Below, piece by piece: positions 24,286-30,639 of a DNA stretch of 64,000 nt; the stretch's first letter is position 1; the number at the start of each line of letters is the position of its first letter. A program made the position numbers and the translations under genes. The DNA is taken from NCBI GenBank assembly GCA_964016885.1, contig OZ024745.1:113522001-113586000 (forward strand), given 5' to 3'. The notes below the pieces were generated by a model that had not been told where the DNA came from, did not search any database, and was given only the letters and a program-made list of their open reading frames with translations. This DNA is from Eledone cirrhosa. Taxonomy: Eukaryota.

Positions 24286-27234
24286 ATTGTATATCTATAT
24301 ATATACATATATATATACGTATATAATATATATACTTGCGTTAAATATGCTGACTGAACGGGGTCGCGTATGCAAAGCATCAATCTGTAATTGCTATTCG
24401 TTTCAAGCACTCAACGTCATGTTTGTTTCTTCCAAATATGATTTGTCAGTCAGTGACTGAGAATATGTAGGATAGGGAAAATGAGAAGTCCGGTGTAGAT
24501 ATTAAAGAGTCCTTTATTAACAAAGCTATGATGTATATGTCAATGACGATCGTGACCACGTGATTGTTCAGTCAGCTAACTCGTCACGCGATATCATCAG
24601 ACAGCACCTTTATGTAATAAGGTTACGTTTCCGAGGCATTCTAAAGACAAGGGAACGGACAAATATGATGTTTTCATAGCCGAAGTCCAATATAGGATAG
24701 CACGCCTTGCCACATAGATTTATAGCCCTTTACGTTTGAGCTTAAATCCTGCCGATGTTATCTTTGCCTTTCATCCCTACGAGGTCGATATGATAAAGTA
24801 CTAGTAACCCTCTGGGGTTGTTTTAATCGCCTTTCTCCTTCCCCTCCAAATTGCTGACCTTGTGTCAAAAGTAGTAATAATTATTATACACTCCAAACTG
24901 TTCATATTGCATGCTATTCTTAAAGGTTTTCAACTAGACTTAAAGAATATCTATTGCAAACTATTTCGTCGGTTTTCATCGTCTGGGTAGTATTGAACTG
25001 TACAAATTATTCATTTGATTTATCAGGTTTAAATGTATATGATTCATCGTCAACAGAAGGGTGGTAAGCCATTTTAATGACAGGCAGTTATTTGTCAAAA
25101 AACGTGCTAAAAGAAGTTTTTCTTGTATTATTGATAAACACATTCTTTTGATAAAATAGTGCAGAAAAGAAAAAAAATTGAAACCCTTTTAAAATAATTA
25201 ATTTTGATGCTAGAAGTTCCTTTACATTTTTATGAACATTTTGGTCTTTCGAGAAATTGTAGGAAAATAAAATGAAATGTCACAAAATATTTTAGGGTAG
25301 TAGAATTATCTTTAAGCATGAAATATTCTCATCTATTGAAAATATTTTCATAAACTTCAACAAGTTGCTACTATAAATCTTGAACTAAAAATATACATAA
25401 TAAAATGTATCAAACAAATTGATCGATCAGCGTAAAGAAAAAGTTGTCACATAAGAGTAAGGCAATTTTTAATGTGTTGCGTCTATGGCTTGATCTTTGA
25501 ATTTACAACGTTTTATGAACGCGAAGATAGTTTGCAAGAACACTTTTGATTAGCTCAATAATTTTCTCTTTTATTTTAATCTCCCTAAAGATTTTTTTAT
25601 CCGACTAAATATACATTCTATACGTCTGTTAAAATTTAGCTATTGAATAATATAAGGTGTGATTAATATAAAAAATACTATTTATGTCTTCAACGCTAAT
25701 ATTATCGAAAAATAGATTCAACATATGTATTTTTTTTTTCTTTTTAGTAAATGTGAGGAACATAAAACATTTTTTTTTTCTTTTATTTGTCTGTTTGAAG
25801 GAATCGATTAATTTTGCGAAAGTAAAAGAGAAGTACACTACCCTGTCGGAAGAATTAATTGAAAGTATTAGTATGCTTAAGGTGGGGAGGAACCAAAGAG
25901 AAATGATGTATGACAAAAGATCTACATTTCTTCTTCTTCTTCTTCTTCTTCTTCTTCTTCTTCTTCTAGTTAGACAAAGCTAGAACGCTGAGACAAGTGG
26001 GGCAAGACCAAGCGAAGCCAAAGGACGTTCTAGTTAGACAAAACTAGAACGGCGAGGGGTACGGGGCAAGGCTCAGCGAACCCTTCTACATTCTTCTTCT
26101 TCTTCTTCTTCTCATCGGGTTTTGAATTTTTTTTTTGTAGGGTAATTTTGTGTTTTCTATTGTATTGGATGCACTGTATGTATTATGTGCAGTACTATTG
26201 CCTGTATCCTTATTTCTTTATTTGTCTTAGAAATGTATTTTCACTTGTATTATCGATCTTGAAACATATTCCTTCCTGGTGAACTTGACAGTAGTATCAG
26301 GTGGGCTAATCTTGATAATTCTGTCTGTTTGGATTCGTAAGTATCAGAATTCTGTCGCTTTGTGATTCTCAGTGGCCGTTTCTATAATAGTGAAGTTCCT
26401 CTGCATAATATATGTGCAATGCCTAACTGAACTGTGTTCAACCCAATGATTTCCCTTTCTTTGTATCCTCAATATTCCTACTTTTGGAGAGATTTTTCTT
26501 TAGCATGATATTCTATAGACTCTAATTCTAGTTATAAGTAGATTATTTTTTTCACAATTACGCTCGTTGCACATCCTTTCACCTTACAGCTGTCAGTTAA
26601 TTCAGTCTCTCTATTATATATGATGGCAGTCACAGAATTTTACTTGTTCGTTTTTAGCGTATTTTCTAGCTATTATACAATAATTTGTTTTGCTCTTTCT
26701 TTGCTAGGTATATTTATAGTCCTTCAGTGAATATTTTATAATAGTTTCTTCTTGTGGTTGTTGACGATAATTCTCTCCTGGTTATGTTGTTTTTAGTTTG
26801 TTGTTTTTTTTTCGACAATTTTAGGTTTCAGGTTCATCTTTATGTTCTTGAGAAGTAAGTAGCGCTGTTTTATGGAGAATTAAAATGTATTTGTATACGA
26901 TAGAAGCTTTACTTTCTTGTAGAAATGTGTAATTGTCTCTGGTTTTGTTTTAGGGTCTCGTCCTTTTAGTACAGTGTGTGTAAAATCGGATACGCTATAT
27001 CGTTGCAGGGTGATTCCTTTTGTTATGTGTCTGCTTTATGCTAAATGGGTTAGTGTTCAGTTATATTTTATCAAATACGTGATATGTGGGTTGTAATAAT
27101 TTATTAATAGTGAATATAGACATAGAATATTCGAAAATATTCTGTATGTTTATAATAAACATTTTGAAGACCTAATCGCTATAGAATAGAATACGTCACG
27201 TATTACAATTAGATTCTCGATAAAAGCAAGGGAA

Positions 27235-27277
27235 GTAATCTACGCGTTTCATTCTTGTTAGAATTCATCAGGACTAC
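27235..27277 (-). ncRNA. Type I hammerhead ribozyme core, inverted copy A
   Basis: The + strand reads gtaatctacgcgtttcattcttgttagaattcatcaggactac, the reverse complement of the core. One substitution in the distal stem (27288 G versus C at 27598). Confidence 0.88.
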
Positions 27278-27544
27278 ATATCCAGTGGTTTTATCGAGAA
27301 TGACACAGCTAGAGACTTATAGAATACTTAGCTGTGTACAGGAACTGGTTTGAAAGAGCGGTTGCCGGTCCGGCAGAAATTAGAAATTGGAATAAATGCT
27401 CTGAAATAGCGATATATATGTGAATATAGACATAGAATATTCGAAAATATTCTGTATGTTTATAATAAACATTTTGAAGACCTAATCGCTATAGAATAGA
27501 ATACGTCACGTATTACAATTAGATTCTCGATAAAAGCAAGGGAA

Positions 27545-27587
27545 GTAATCTACGCGTTTCATTCTTGTTAGAATTCATCAGGACTAC
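27545..27587 (-). ncRNA. Type I hammerhead ribozyme core, inverted copy B
   Basis: Reverse complement of the core, 310 bp from copy A. Confidence 0.88.
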
Positions 27588-27775
27588 ATATCCAGTGCTT
27601 TTATCGAGAATGACACAGCTAGAGACTTATAGAATACTTAGCTGTGTACAGGAACTGGTTTGAAAGAGCGGTTGCCGGTCCGGCAGACAATTTCTAATTT
27701 CTGCCGGACCGGCAACCGCTCTTTCAAACCAGTTCCTGTACACAGCTAAGTATTCTATAAGTCTCTAGCTGTGTC

Positions 27776-27864
27776 ATTCTCGATAAAAGCACTGGATATG
27801 TAGTCCTGATGAATTCTAACAAGAATGAAACGCGTAGATTACTTCCCTTGCTTTTATCGAGAAT
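27776..27864 (+). ncRNA. Type I hammerhead ribozyme with extended stem I, array + copy 1
   Basis: gtagtc-CTGATGA(27806-27812)-attct-aaca-agaat-GAAA(27827-27830)-cgc-GTA^gattac. Stem I gtagtc/gattac, stem II attct/agaat, minimal palindromic stem III ACGCGT. Distal stem attctcgataaaagca/tgcttttatcgagaat. Predicted cleavage after 27836. Confidence 0.9.
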
Positions 27865-28395: not shown

Positions 28396-28484
28396 ATTCT
28401 CGATAAAAGCACTGGATATGTAGTCCTGATGAATTCTAACAAGAATGAAACGCGTAGATTACTTCCCTTGCTTTTATCGAGAAT
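28396..28484 (+). ncRNA. Type I hammerhead ribozyme, array + copy 3
   Basis: Same sequence, offset +620. Confidence 0.9.
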
Positions 28485-28705
28485 CTAATTGTAATACGTG
28501 ACGTATTCTATTCTATAGCGATTAGGTCTTCAAAATGTTTATTATAAACATACAGAATATTTTCGAATATTCTATGTCTATATTCACATATATATCGCTA
28601 TTTCAGAGCATTTATTCCAATTTCTAATTTCTGCCGGACCGGCAACCGCTCTTTCAAACCAGTTCCTGTACACAGCTAAGTATTCTATAAGTCTCTAGCT
28701 GTGTC

Positions 28706-28794
28706 ATTCTCGATAAAAGCACTGGATATGTAGTCCTGATGAATTCTAACAAGAATGAAACGCGTAGATTACTTCCCTTGCTTTTATCGAGAAT
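28706..28794 (+). ncRNA. Type I hammerhead ribozyme, array + copy 4
   Basis: Same sequence, offset +930. Confidence 0.9.
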
Positions 28795-29015
28795 CTAATT
28801 GTAATACGTGACGTATTCTATTCTATAGCGATTAGGTCTTCAAAATGTTTATTATAAACATACAGAATATTTTCGAATATTCTATGTCTATATTCACATA
28901 TATATCGCTATTTCAGAGCATTTATTCCAATTTCTAATTTCTGCCGGACCGGCAACCGCTCTTTCAAACCAGTTCCTGTACACAGCTAAGTATTCTATAA
29001 GTCTCTAGCTGTGTC

Positions 29016-29104
29016 ATTCTCGATAAAAGCACTGGATATGTAGTCCTGATGAATTCTAACAAGAATGAAACGCGTAGATTACTTCCCTTGCTTTTATCGA
29101 GAAT
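29016..29104 (+). ncRNA. Type I hammerhead ribozyme, array + copy 5
   Basis: Same sequence, offset +1240. Confidence 0.9.
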
Positions 29105-30639
29105 CTAATTGTAATACGTGACGTATTCTATTCTATAGCGATTAGGTCTTCAAAATGTTTATTATAAACATACAGAATATTTTCGAATATTCTATGTCTA
29201 TATTCACATATATATCGCTATTTCAGAGCATTTATTCCAATTTCTTATTAATAGTATTTAACGGTAGCAATGACATAGTTTAGTTCATAATAGAAATGTA
29301 TTTGAAATCACAGAATATGTTTAAGAAAACTAAAAATACATGATGAATGTTTAAGGCTGTGATCATGTCACAGCTATCTTAGTACTGTGTGAGATTGCCA
29401 GACACGTATTTATGCATTTGTATCTGTATTCAGTACCGTTACTTACTCGTTATGGAGATAAGAATAAGCTATAGTTTATATACTAGTTTGCGTATGGAAT
29501 ATCGGTTAGAGATACTCATTTACATAACATATAGTGCGAGCGTGACTGGCTTGGAATTATTGGCAGTAGCAGTAATATATCGAAGTTAATTATAGAGGTG
29601 TGTACAAAGACATTTCTGTCCGATGAAGAACACGTTTATGGCGTTCACACATGACTACTGTGATAATTGCGATATGATCACAGTTGAAAACATCCATAGC
29701 ACACTTAATGTATGTTTATAATACTTAAAAATATCGAATATACCTTCATATCGCTAGACACCCTTACAACACTGCAGGGTACTGATAGAGAGCTGCAGAG
29801 ATAAAGCAAATACACAAACGGGTTGAAGCGATGAAAGCAAATTATATGTGAAACACACACTGATCCCCACTTCACATGAGAAGACGAAGTTCGTGATGTT
29901 ATGAACAAAAAACATATCTTTGAGATCCAAGTTGTACGTTTGCACGAAGTAGATTGGCAGGGAGGTTGCATTACTAAAGACAGGCAAAAGATAGGATAGA
30001 TATATGGGTGGCTCATCGATGCTACATCATCGATGCTACATCATATAAGGCAGCAATCACCAAGAAGCGATACCTGTTTTTACATGGCCAAAATAATAGA
30101 GATATGGAGGGCGAGAGAGGTGTAGGCGATAACAGTGGGAGGTCGGCTCTTCTGTGTTCAGACCTGGTGTGCAGCATCAGTTGCCTGCAGGGGGGAAGTG
30201 ATTCATATATACACACATATATAAGTATTATATTGAACTACTGCGTATATTTGATCAATCCATTATTGCCAGAAACTTAGTTATTTTATTAAATCTATTT
30301 AAATATAAACCAAAAATGCGTTTCAATAACACGACTGGAGAGCCGCCGAGTCATCTGGTCCCGTATAAACCAAAGATTTCTCATCCATTTGTAAGTGGCT
30401 TACTTAATTTGTGTTTCATATATTTTAATGATTTTTTAAATTTAAATCACATTTATTTATTGTGTTTTATATAACGTATACAAAACAACTATTCAATTCG
30501 ATTTAATAGATTATTAGTTCTTCCAAGATGTGTGACCTGTGACTATGTTATATATCGTTATGTTATTGTTCATTTTGGCATTAACATTCAGCGTAAAAGG
30601 TAAAAAATATCGTCAGTCACGAATGACCATGTACTTTGC

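Follow-up and report, generated by a model that had tools for sequence, protein, structure and literature searches.

The window, that is, the whole 64,000-nt stretch of Eledone cirrhosa DNA analysed here, carries an insertion built from a 310-nt unit in a region with a GC content of about 0.34. The exact 310-nt period had been described in the original prediction, together with about seven units and a single substitution, at 27288; we recovered the same period, a total of about 6.9 units and that substitution as the sole one among them. The prediction read the array as successive copies of one tandem unit and thereby overlooked that it consists of two opposed arms, arranged back to back. The inverted arm (27110..27687, minus strand) contains 1.86 units and the direct arm (27688..29245, plus strand) contains 5.03 identical units. 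Numbering the unit from 27837, the base directly after the predicted ribozyme cut, we found that the two 5'-truncated arms meet bluntly and head to head at 27687..27688, the inverted arm being truncated at unit position 174 and the direct arm at 162. At the outer edges, the RNA-sense 3' end of the inverted arm lies at 27110 (minus strand), unit position 131, which we call the short end. The 3' end of the direct arm lies at unit position 169, the long or tailed end. The latter carries a one-sided tail (29208..29245, plus strand; unit 132-169) that the end of the other arm lacks. A stem-loop in the final copy (29157..29207, plus strand; unit ~81-131) terminates at the short-end position.

The element is bounded by target-site duplications at 27102..27109 and 29246..29253, of which 8 nt are unambiguous; counting bases shared with the element, they extend to at most 11 nt (27101-27111 on the left, 29245-29255 on the right). 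The limits proposed previously, 27101-29255, hold as the outer edges of this 11-nt shared flank string, but the element proper spans 27110-29245. The left flank is coding-like, decayed sequence, and contig 9 of the public run X2 matches solely from 29245 rightwards. As anticipated, no long open reading frame is present: once the unit is circularised, no ATG frame exceeds 30 codons, the length of the longest one. Within the window element we found no ORF for a reverse transcriptase (RT) with GIY-YIG and no terminal direct repeats besides the unit itself, and the unit showed no Pol III B box. The sense strand of the unit has two runs of four T. Candidate miRNA matches at the locus were rejected, as they arise from the perfect hairpin at the arm junction.

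The hammerhead ribozyme and the fold of the unit

A type I hammerhead at 27800..27842 (plus strand) recurs at +310, +620, +930 and +1240, and the inverted arm carries the motif in its inner unit (27545..27587, minus strand) and its outer unit (27235..27277, minus strand). The core and helices are thus present in 7/7 window units, as the original prediction had stated, with the same predicted cut after 27836. The motif consists of a 6-bp helix I, the core, a 5-bp helix II and a helix III of the form A-CGCG-U; helix I is prolonged by a 16-bp distal stem (unit 251-266 with 11-26). The substitution at 27288 (unit 263) falls in this distal stem, just upstream of the outer minus-strand hammerhead. 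Calling the hammerhead complete was an overstatement, because helix III comprises one pair and a palindromic tetraloop, as in a dimer-type ribozyme. In folding calculations, helix III of a monomer does not form (0 kcal/mol), while a 6-bp duplex between two copies reaches -7.5 kcal/mol. Since helix III is a single pair with a palindromic loop, the ribozyme is predicted to cut probably only as a dimer. The Infernal search with Rfam models that had been suggested as a check gave no match at the gathering score, with Hammerhead_HH9 at 23 bits against a cut-off of 52. The helix III arrangement resembles that of axolotl HHR_Amex1, and the commonest variant here shares a U-U mismatch at the base of helix II with HHR_Amex2.

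The whole unit folded with a z-score of -5.8 against 100 shuffles. Across older sister families, 15/21 ribozyme pairs showed two-sided changes, including a core change from C3-G8 to U3-A8. The hammerhead core contained 0/29 fixed substitutions versus 4 singletons, and at paired positions pairing was kept in 10/17 fixed versus 13/52 singleton changes (p 0.017); some of the singletons are alignment artefacts, and others may stem from errors of assembly. These substitution patterns suggest selection on the ribozyme, which we count in favour of the explanation preferred below. The best-conserved part of the unit in the older sister families is 59-154 (77-82% identity), which takes in the stem-loop at ~81-131. 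By analogy with PMC11167929, this stem-loop is a candidate recognition site for the reverse transcriptase.

Anatomy of the insertions across the genome

Copies were located with exact patterns, and summed contig depths of public runs were left out of the copy number. In the genome-wide count proposed earlier, a 24-nt tag had 16,608 exact matches, from which we estimate roughly 2,000 insertions; reversed-pattern controls gave 0 matches, which together with the fold of the unit speaks against a chance motif. The unit is also present in independent public runs. The dispersed tags and the covariation of the ribozyme across sister families uphold the view that this is a young, mobile, hammerhead-bearing non-LTR retrozyme. 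It combines tandem units of 310 bp, inside the 150-450 bp range of non-LTR retrozymes, a GC content below 50%, one type I hammerhead in each unit, dispersed insertions and a target duplication of more than 4 bp.

Two arms were present in 75/82 insertions examined, and in 19/22 of a subset picked by the ribozyme pattern alone. The outer ends occur at two fixed unit positions, ~131 and ~165, about 35 nt apart, and each of the 66/66 complete two-arm insertions tested has one short and one long end. The tail measures 34 nt (to unit 165) in most other loci and 38 nt in the window. That a two-armed insertion has its ends away from the ribozyme cut is the most informative feature of the element, and it had been missed. 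Among loci picked by ribozyme pattern, 19/21 flank pairs were (TA)n-rich, and the genome contains 980 tail-(AT)n junctions. At two non-microsatellite targets, the window (duplication 8-11 bp) and L034 (10-12 bp), the short end still lies at 130-131, which means that this end is not set by AT homology. The inverted copy, the one-sided tail and the microsatellite target are footprints of Penelope-like elements (PLEs). Together with the target duplication, such PLE-type ends support the Penelope-like machinery that had been invoked.

Across loci, the arrays range from 1 to 45 units, and the two arms have means of 3.6 and 4.8 units. The tail arm is longer in 41/66 insertions and the other arm in 25/66, and the lengths of paired arms correlate (rho 0.39, p 0.001). 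Of 72 arm junctions, 42 show microhomology, mostly of 1-6 nt, 9 are blunt and 21 contain inserted bases. Symmetric junctions were in no excess (6/73 versus 7.3 expected). The 144 inner ends are spread across the unit, with 4 near the cut versus 4.6 expected; the densest 10-nt window holds 13 of them (scan p 0.12), and a candidate cluster at unit 13-22 was rejected on this ground. No arm examined read through a donor junction.

Haplotypes, template and mechanism of insertion

The 67 insertions carry 31 haplotypes, and nearly always one haplotype fills both arms. Where both arms cover an index, 53 rows of non-fixed variants were confined to a single arm. One haplotype per insertion, together with inner ends that avoid no position, agrees with repeated passage of a PLE reverse transcriptase round a single circular monomer. 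The spread of the inner ends and the absence of donor-junction read-through speak for an endless template. We favour, with a probability of about 0.55, the reading that a PLE, through its RT/GIY-YIG protein, inserted this young non-autonomous retroelement (a non-LTR retrozyme), usually from a circular monomer, and that some loci later grew or converted in DNA. Its parts differ in strength: mobilisation by a PLE with double priming is very likely, the PLE is probably of the Neptune type, and the circular monomer as the usual template is only somewhat favoured.

On this preferred reading, arrays would first be transcribed into multimers. Adjacent hammerheads would then pair via the palindromic helix III and excise 310-nt monomers to be ligated into circles, which a lone ribozyme would reopen poorly, as the structure and the axolotl retrozymes suggest. 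A PLE protein would nick the two strands of an AT-rich target at points separated by 8-12 bp, leaving the observed target duplications and (TA)n bias. Both DNA ends would prime on the same template at the internal sites ~131 and ~165; such priming is suggested by the biochemistry of PAc, and the fixed ends and the shared haplotype are observed. Each cDNA would run a variable number of rounds (on average 3.6 and 4.8 units) before head-to-head joining, and here the arm lengths and the predominant 1-6-nt microhomology are the observed basis. Some loci would afterwards expand or convert at the DNA level. More specifically, though at slightly worse than even odds, the insertions may record a dimeric Penelope-type enzyme that primes from both cut strands on one ribozyme-made circle and rolls round it. 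If so, a single molecule would be re-amplified at each insertion as a pair of concatemers lying back to back, and haplotypes would recombine when the enzyme now and then jumped from one circle to another (L116, L137). This would supply the missing evidence for the proposed retrozyme life cycle and explain the PLE tail and inverted copy by one mechanism.

The strongest alternative, which is possible but appreciably less probable, keeps the same PLE enzyme and double priming with an uncut linear multimer as template, transcribed from a small number of master arrays that are long and homogeneous; growth and homogenisation would take place in DNA, and mobility would depend little on the ribozyme. 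Three loci bear on this. In L137, counting from the 3' end, both arms contain two variant units and then reference units; L122 has one substitution at index 1 of both arms; and L116 switches haplotype inside one arm. Such ordered variants mean that a monomer circle alone is insufficient at these loci, and with the array growth in DNA they argue that the template is, at least sometimes, a linear multimer. The variant order common to both arms in L137 and L122 favours this reading, as does the L137 junction, which occurs once in the genome (accordingly, an origin of the L137 centre from another locus found no support). However, the two halves of L122 nearly mirror each other, which could reflect arm-to-arm conversion, and L137, with four single-base deletions, may be mis-assembled. 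Fixed variants that seemed private to one locus failed in both tests, the two variants proving to be subfamilies of 357 and 1,392 units; array homogeneity can hence come from a homogeneous donor. The extra base in L102, 2 nt from the cut, belongs to the 1,392-unit subfamily and was rejected as a ligation scar, and the repeated junction of this locus looks like a local duplication. Arms of 21-45 units do exist, and the variant pattern of the 45-unit arm (L125/L163) contains a 27-unit repeat, which indicates array growth in DNA. Nevertheless, the linked 81/84 marks of this longest arm occur in 0 of the other 81 insertions, a long master would be required for each of at least 31 haplotypes, and inner ends pile up neither at any start site nor at the cut, with no donor-junction read-through. 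Covariation of the ribozyme pairs likewise speaks against this alternative. Two biochemical results weigh against the preferred reading: PAc works on unprocessed RNA in vitro, where the hammerhead is dispensable for insertion and none of the reads stops at the cut site (PMC11167929), and 8/9 Xenopus retrozyme dimers showed no cleavage in vitro (bioRxiv 10.64898/2026.07.22.740005). The 340-nt contigs that close on themselves in runs X1, X3 and X6 were rejected as evidence of RNA circles, as a tandem array gives the same.

It is improbable that a single priming event sufficed and that the second arm arose either when the first cDNA folded back or primed itself, as PLE inverted repeats have been read (PMC3846280), or by copying of the first arm's DNA. 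The haplotype common to both arms would follow, and the short-end arm does not exceed the tailed arm in L137 and L122; but either arm may be the longer one, symmetric junctions are not above chance, the window and L034 have their second end at the fixed position despite a lack of AT homology, and PAc in vitro nicks the two target strands and extends each of them (PMC11167929). Spread without retrotransposition, as satellite or fold-back DNA moved by extrachromosomal circles or recombination, or an assembly artefact is very unlikely and already largely refuted: L125 shows DNA-level expansion and perfect palindromic repeats are difficult to assemble, but target duplications, two fixed ends, a tail on one side only, inner truncation at random positions, junctions peculiar to their locus in 72 cases, a conserved RNA structure and the unit's presence in independent public runs all contradict it.

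Relation to animal retrozymes and Penelope-like elements

Non-LTR retrozymes are known from animals such as coral, mussel and axolotl (PMC7229834; bioRxiv 10.64898/2026.07.22.740005). They resemble the present family in their low-GC, non-coding tandem units of ~300 nt, with one type I hammerhead per unit and a target duplication of more than 4 bp. Compared by description, theirs are head-to-tail, whereas nearly all insertions here are two-armed with fixed ends away from the cut; the word "inverted" occurs 0 times in PMC7229834 and "inversion" 0 times in 10.64898/2026.07.22.740005. Expression and circles are established there and putative in the present family. In the literature we found neither a retrozyme from a cephalopod nor retrozyme arrays with two arms described, a point on which the papers' supplements may bear. 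For re-entry into the genome, PMC7229834 proposed reverse transcription of circles into tandem cDNA, with PLEs as a strong candidate, and 10.64898/2026.07.22.740005 added homology and co-occurrence in vertebrates. Such re-entry into animal genomes has so far been a model and no result. The present family offers about 2,000 insertions that are nearly free of mutations, bear PLE footprints and are marked by many haplotypes, and its genome holds long open PLE frames. These features make the question of a circular or linear template answerable, and the way the insertions are built opens the circle-template model to testing. As a tool, too, a natural reverse transcriptase that is target-primed and rolls round circles would be of interest.

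The endonuclease-bearing PLEs Neptune and Poseidon (PMC8557442, PMC3846280, PMC11167929) share with this family the inverted 5'-truncated copy, a one-sided tail of 30-40 bp, a target duplication of 8-10 bp, the (TA)n bias and two internal RT start sites ~100-150 nt downstream of the hammerhead cut. The origin of PLE inverted copies and tails is an open question (PMC8557442). Unlike these elements, the retrozyme has no ORF, is the size of a pseudo-LTR and is repeated up to 45 times per arm. Elements such as MRC1 of the Chlamys group (PMC8557442) are likewise non-autonomous PLE derivatives with multicopy head-to-tail insertions, but Chlamys are green algal and mostly lack canonical hammerheads. 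Non-autonomous Chlamys elements also resemble autonomous partners at the 3' end, whereas no partner was found here: among 50 of the 150 listed GIY-YIG loci (10,595 candidates), we found no ORF-bearing PLE with the unit's sequence and no autonomous element with the retrozyme's terminal sequence, and the sequence upstream of 4 sister-family copies gave no match either. The genome does hold long open RT plus GIY-YIG frames with a CX2-5CxxC linker. For a PLE protein from this genome, the nearest atlas clusters were loosely molluscan.

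Two-armed insertions of a young, dispersed family

Tandem Repeats Finder resolved the element in the window (27110-29245) into two period-310 arrays. The single tandem array of about seven copies in the original prediction thus stands as regards its repeat units but not its single orientation: BLAST and exact comparison revealed a plus-strand arm of five identical units and a minus-strand arm of 1.86 units. The predicted 310-bp period and lone substitution, at 27288 in the minus-strand arm, were borne out. The two arms abut at 27687/27688 in head-to-head orientation (unit 174 | 162, where unit position 1 is window 27837, the first base after the predicted hammerhead cut), without overlap or inserted bases, and their outer RNA-sense 3' ends lie at unit 131 (27110) and unit 169 (29245). 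An 8-nt string is common to both flanks, or 11 nt counting bases shared with the element. In the public sequencing run X2, a 1,941-nt contig (depth 10.5) has a match to the right flank that starts only at 29245, and it continues as other sequence. This is the pattern expected from an empty allele, although as evidence for one it is indirect. The insertion target, window 26140-27100 (minus strand), is an A-rich, coding-like, heavily broken stretch and probably an old retroelement remnant.

The copy-number check confirmed a dispersed family: the 3.0-Gb genome contains 16,608 occurrences of a 24-nt tag, and the tail joins (AT)n at 980 places. At about 8.4 units per insertion, we estimate roughly 2,000 insertions. 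We examined 82 of them: the window element, 21 on contig C1 found by ribozyme patterns, and 60 tail-junction loci, the first additional ones among 100 tail junctions listed. Two divergent arms were present in 75 (71 regions from the automatic tally, a second insertion in L101, L113, and L108 and L125 via extensions). In the remaining seven a single arm was seen, cut off by a gap in one case and probably accompanied by a stub in another. Among the 22 insertions not chosen by their ends, 19 were two-armed, and every one of these paired a short end with a long end. In all 66 complete two-arm cases, one end, which runs into AT, lay at about 126-131 and the other at 154-169, mostly 165. Flanks were (TA)n-rich in 19 of 21 pairs; the window element and locus L034, whose flanks are not, have duplications of 8-11 and 10-12 bp and still end at 130-131. 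The 72 inter-arm junctions comprised 42 with microhomology, nine blunt and 21 with inserted bases. Arms averaged 3.6 and 4.8 units, with the longest clipped by fetch size; either arm can be the longer, and their lengths correlate.

Singleton substitutions numbered at most 4.5 per 10,000 sites; therefore, the family is very young. In the haplotype table, three changes (276G, 259G and the insertion of one base at unit 2) each occurred on several backgrounds, which suggests template recombination or repeated selection of structure-keeping changes. The unit, with 0-1 differences and without unique flank, is also present in X1, X3 and X6, three runs whose labels name organisms different from that of X2; close relatives, carried-over traces of the present DNA, and RNA would each fit these matches.

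Probable Penelope-like machinery

Judged by its sequence, the element is real: a non-LTR retrozyme, very young, bearing the insertion footprints of Penelope-like elements (PLEs). Every feature of non-LTR retrozymes that sequence can test is present, cleavage and circles being predictions; for insertions made by PLEs, every such feature is likewise present, apart from a named partner. Neither parent is new: PMC7229834 proposes a link between the two, and 10.64898/2026.07.22.740005 argues for it. PLE hallmarks include an inverted copy truncated at its 5' end, a bias for microsatellites and, on one side only, a tail of 30-40 bp (PMC8557442), with 8-10-bp duplications flanking inverted pseudo-LTRs (PMC3846280); our insertions match in inverted copy, one-sided tail, microsatellite target and duplication. 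PMC11167929 shows nicking and extension of both strands of AT-rich DNA by purified PLE protein, with reverse transcription starting at two internal sites bounding the tail. The predicted mobilization by Penelope-like machinery thus agrees with the two arms, fixed ends, one-sided tail and (TA)n target, and we put the probability that PLE double priming made these insertions at about 0.9.

The genome encodes long open RT plus GIY-YIG frames, P0001 (938 aa) and P0002 (1,096 aa), with the CX2-5CxxC linker typical of Neptune/Nematis. Neptune-like families with long open frames lie at L071:3806-6622 (minus strand), L073:2275-5565 (plus strand), L074, L080 and L090. None of the 50 GIY-YIG loci examined, among 150 listed, has a terminal repeat of its own that consists of the unit, and no partner PLE emerged from them. 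The L074/L080 family has a 3'-region hammerhead with the same U-U helix II base as the commonest retrozyme variant, plus a tail, and in the L090 family the helix III of a hammerhead-like motif is palindromic. A decayed PLE remnant lies at window 59396-60061 (tblastn with P0001, 27% identity, E 3e-7).

The literature searched, as listings and main texts, yielded no description of this family, nor of two-armed retrozyme arrays whose ends are fixed as in PLEs and whose arms share one haplotype. The main value of the family is that the circle-template question becomes testable.

The template

With ends 131 and 165 nt beyond the cut, the insertions are not simple end-to-end copies of a cut linear monomer. 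Repeated jumps from one free monomer to another in a mixed pool should give mosaic arrays, and these are rare (10 loci flagged, eight credible). We lean slightly towards a circular monomer as the usual template. In its favor, the 144 inner ends do not cluster at the cut or at any other position, and no arm reads through a donor junction. Moreover, 31 haplotypes in 67 insertions, including 308- and 311-nt length variants, each fill both arms, and a variant that is not fixed is almost always restricted to a single arm (53 rows, four of them from L116 and several artefacts). Eleven variant rows were common to both arms; two are fixed L122 variants that passed the filter, and the others come from L116, L122 and L137.

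Several observations count against a circle being the sole route. In L137 and L122 the two arms carry variants in a shared order, L116 switches haplotype inside one arm, the L137 junction is unique in the genome, and the fixed variants define subfamilies. The L125 array has grown in DNA: with L163 (C1 ~97.461-97.476 Mb) it forms a 45-unit arm whose variant pattern recurs 27 units apart, with further scattered conversions, and is an insertion turning into a satellite. The ribozyme was dispensable in vitro for PAc, the PLE protein of PMC11167929, and 8/9 Xenopus dimers did not cleave (10.64898/2026.07.22.740005).

The hammerhead and related families

The predicted hammerhead was upheld in part. 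The Rfam search gave no match at gathering score (Hammerhead_HH9, 23 bits vs a cut-off of 52). The folded unit contains helices I and II, plus a 16-bp distal stem (z = -5.8). Helix III, one pair with a palindromic tetraloop, does not fold alone; two copies are predicted to pair over 6 bp (-7.5 kcal/mol). It resembles that of axolotl HHR_Amex1, a ribozyme that is inefficient in monomeric form but cuts well when dimeric, and the U-U at the base of helix II in the commonest genomic variant (8,298 matches vs 2,528 for the window form) is as in HHR_Amex2 (PMC7229834).

When 10 sequences belonging to three families, among them older sister families from fetched loci, were aligned, two-sided changes occurred at 15 of 21 ribozyme pairs, and core pair C3-G8 became U3-A8 in three sequences. 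Pairing held in 87% of cells against 35-51% in slid controls, which flatter the result because we drew the structure from these same, mutually related sequences. Among young copies, the 12 core positions carried 0 of 29 fixed substitutions vs four singletons, and pairing survived 10/17 fixed vs 13/52 singleton changes at paired positions (p 0.017); 22 of the loci had, however, been chosen by ribozyme pattern, and some singletons are alignment artefacts.

An older sister family with about 5% divergence (2,706 candidates in the search; L042:2440-2870, L095:3173-3501, L086:8960-9110, L170-L173) is homologous along the unit and has the same two-arm and tail anatomy, with a longer helix III and mostly at most one unit per arm. 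A still older family has the U3-A8 core (L146:2975-3720, L157:2926-3400, L127:6771-7001). A third, short hammerhead family usually forms small palindromes, with a helix II resembling that of the window element (window ~3938-4067, 8154-8266, 12135-12196 and 52262-52406; L079:7990-8215). The window also holds short tandem repeats of period 174 (49495-49888, 2.3 copies) and period 195 (5278-5665, two copies), the latter SINE-like and reminiscent of octopus SINEs.
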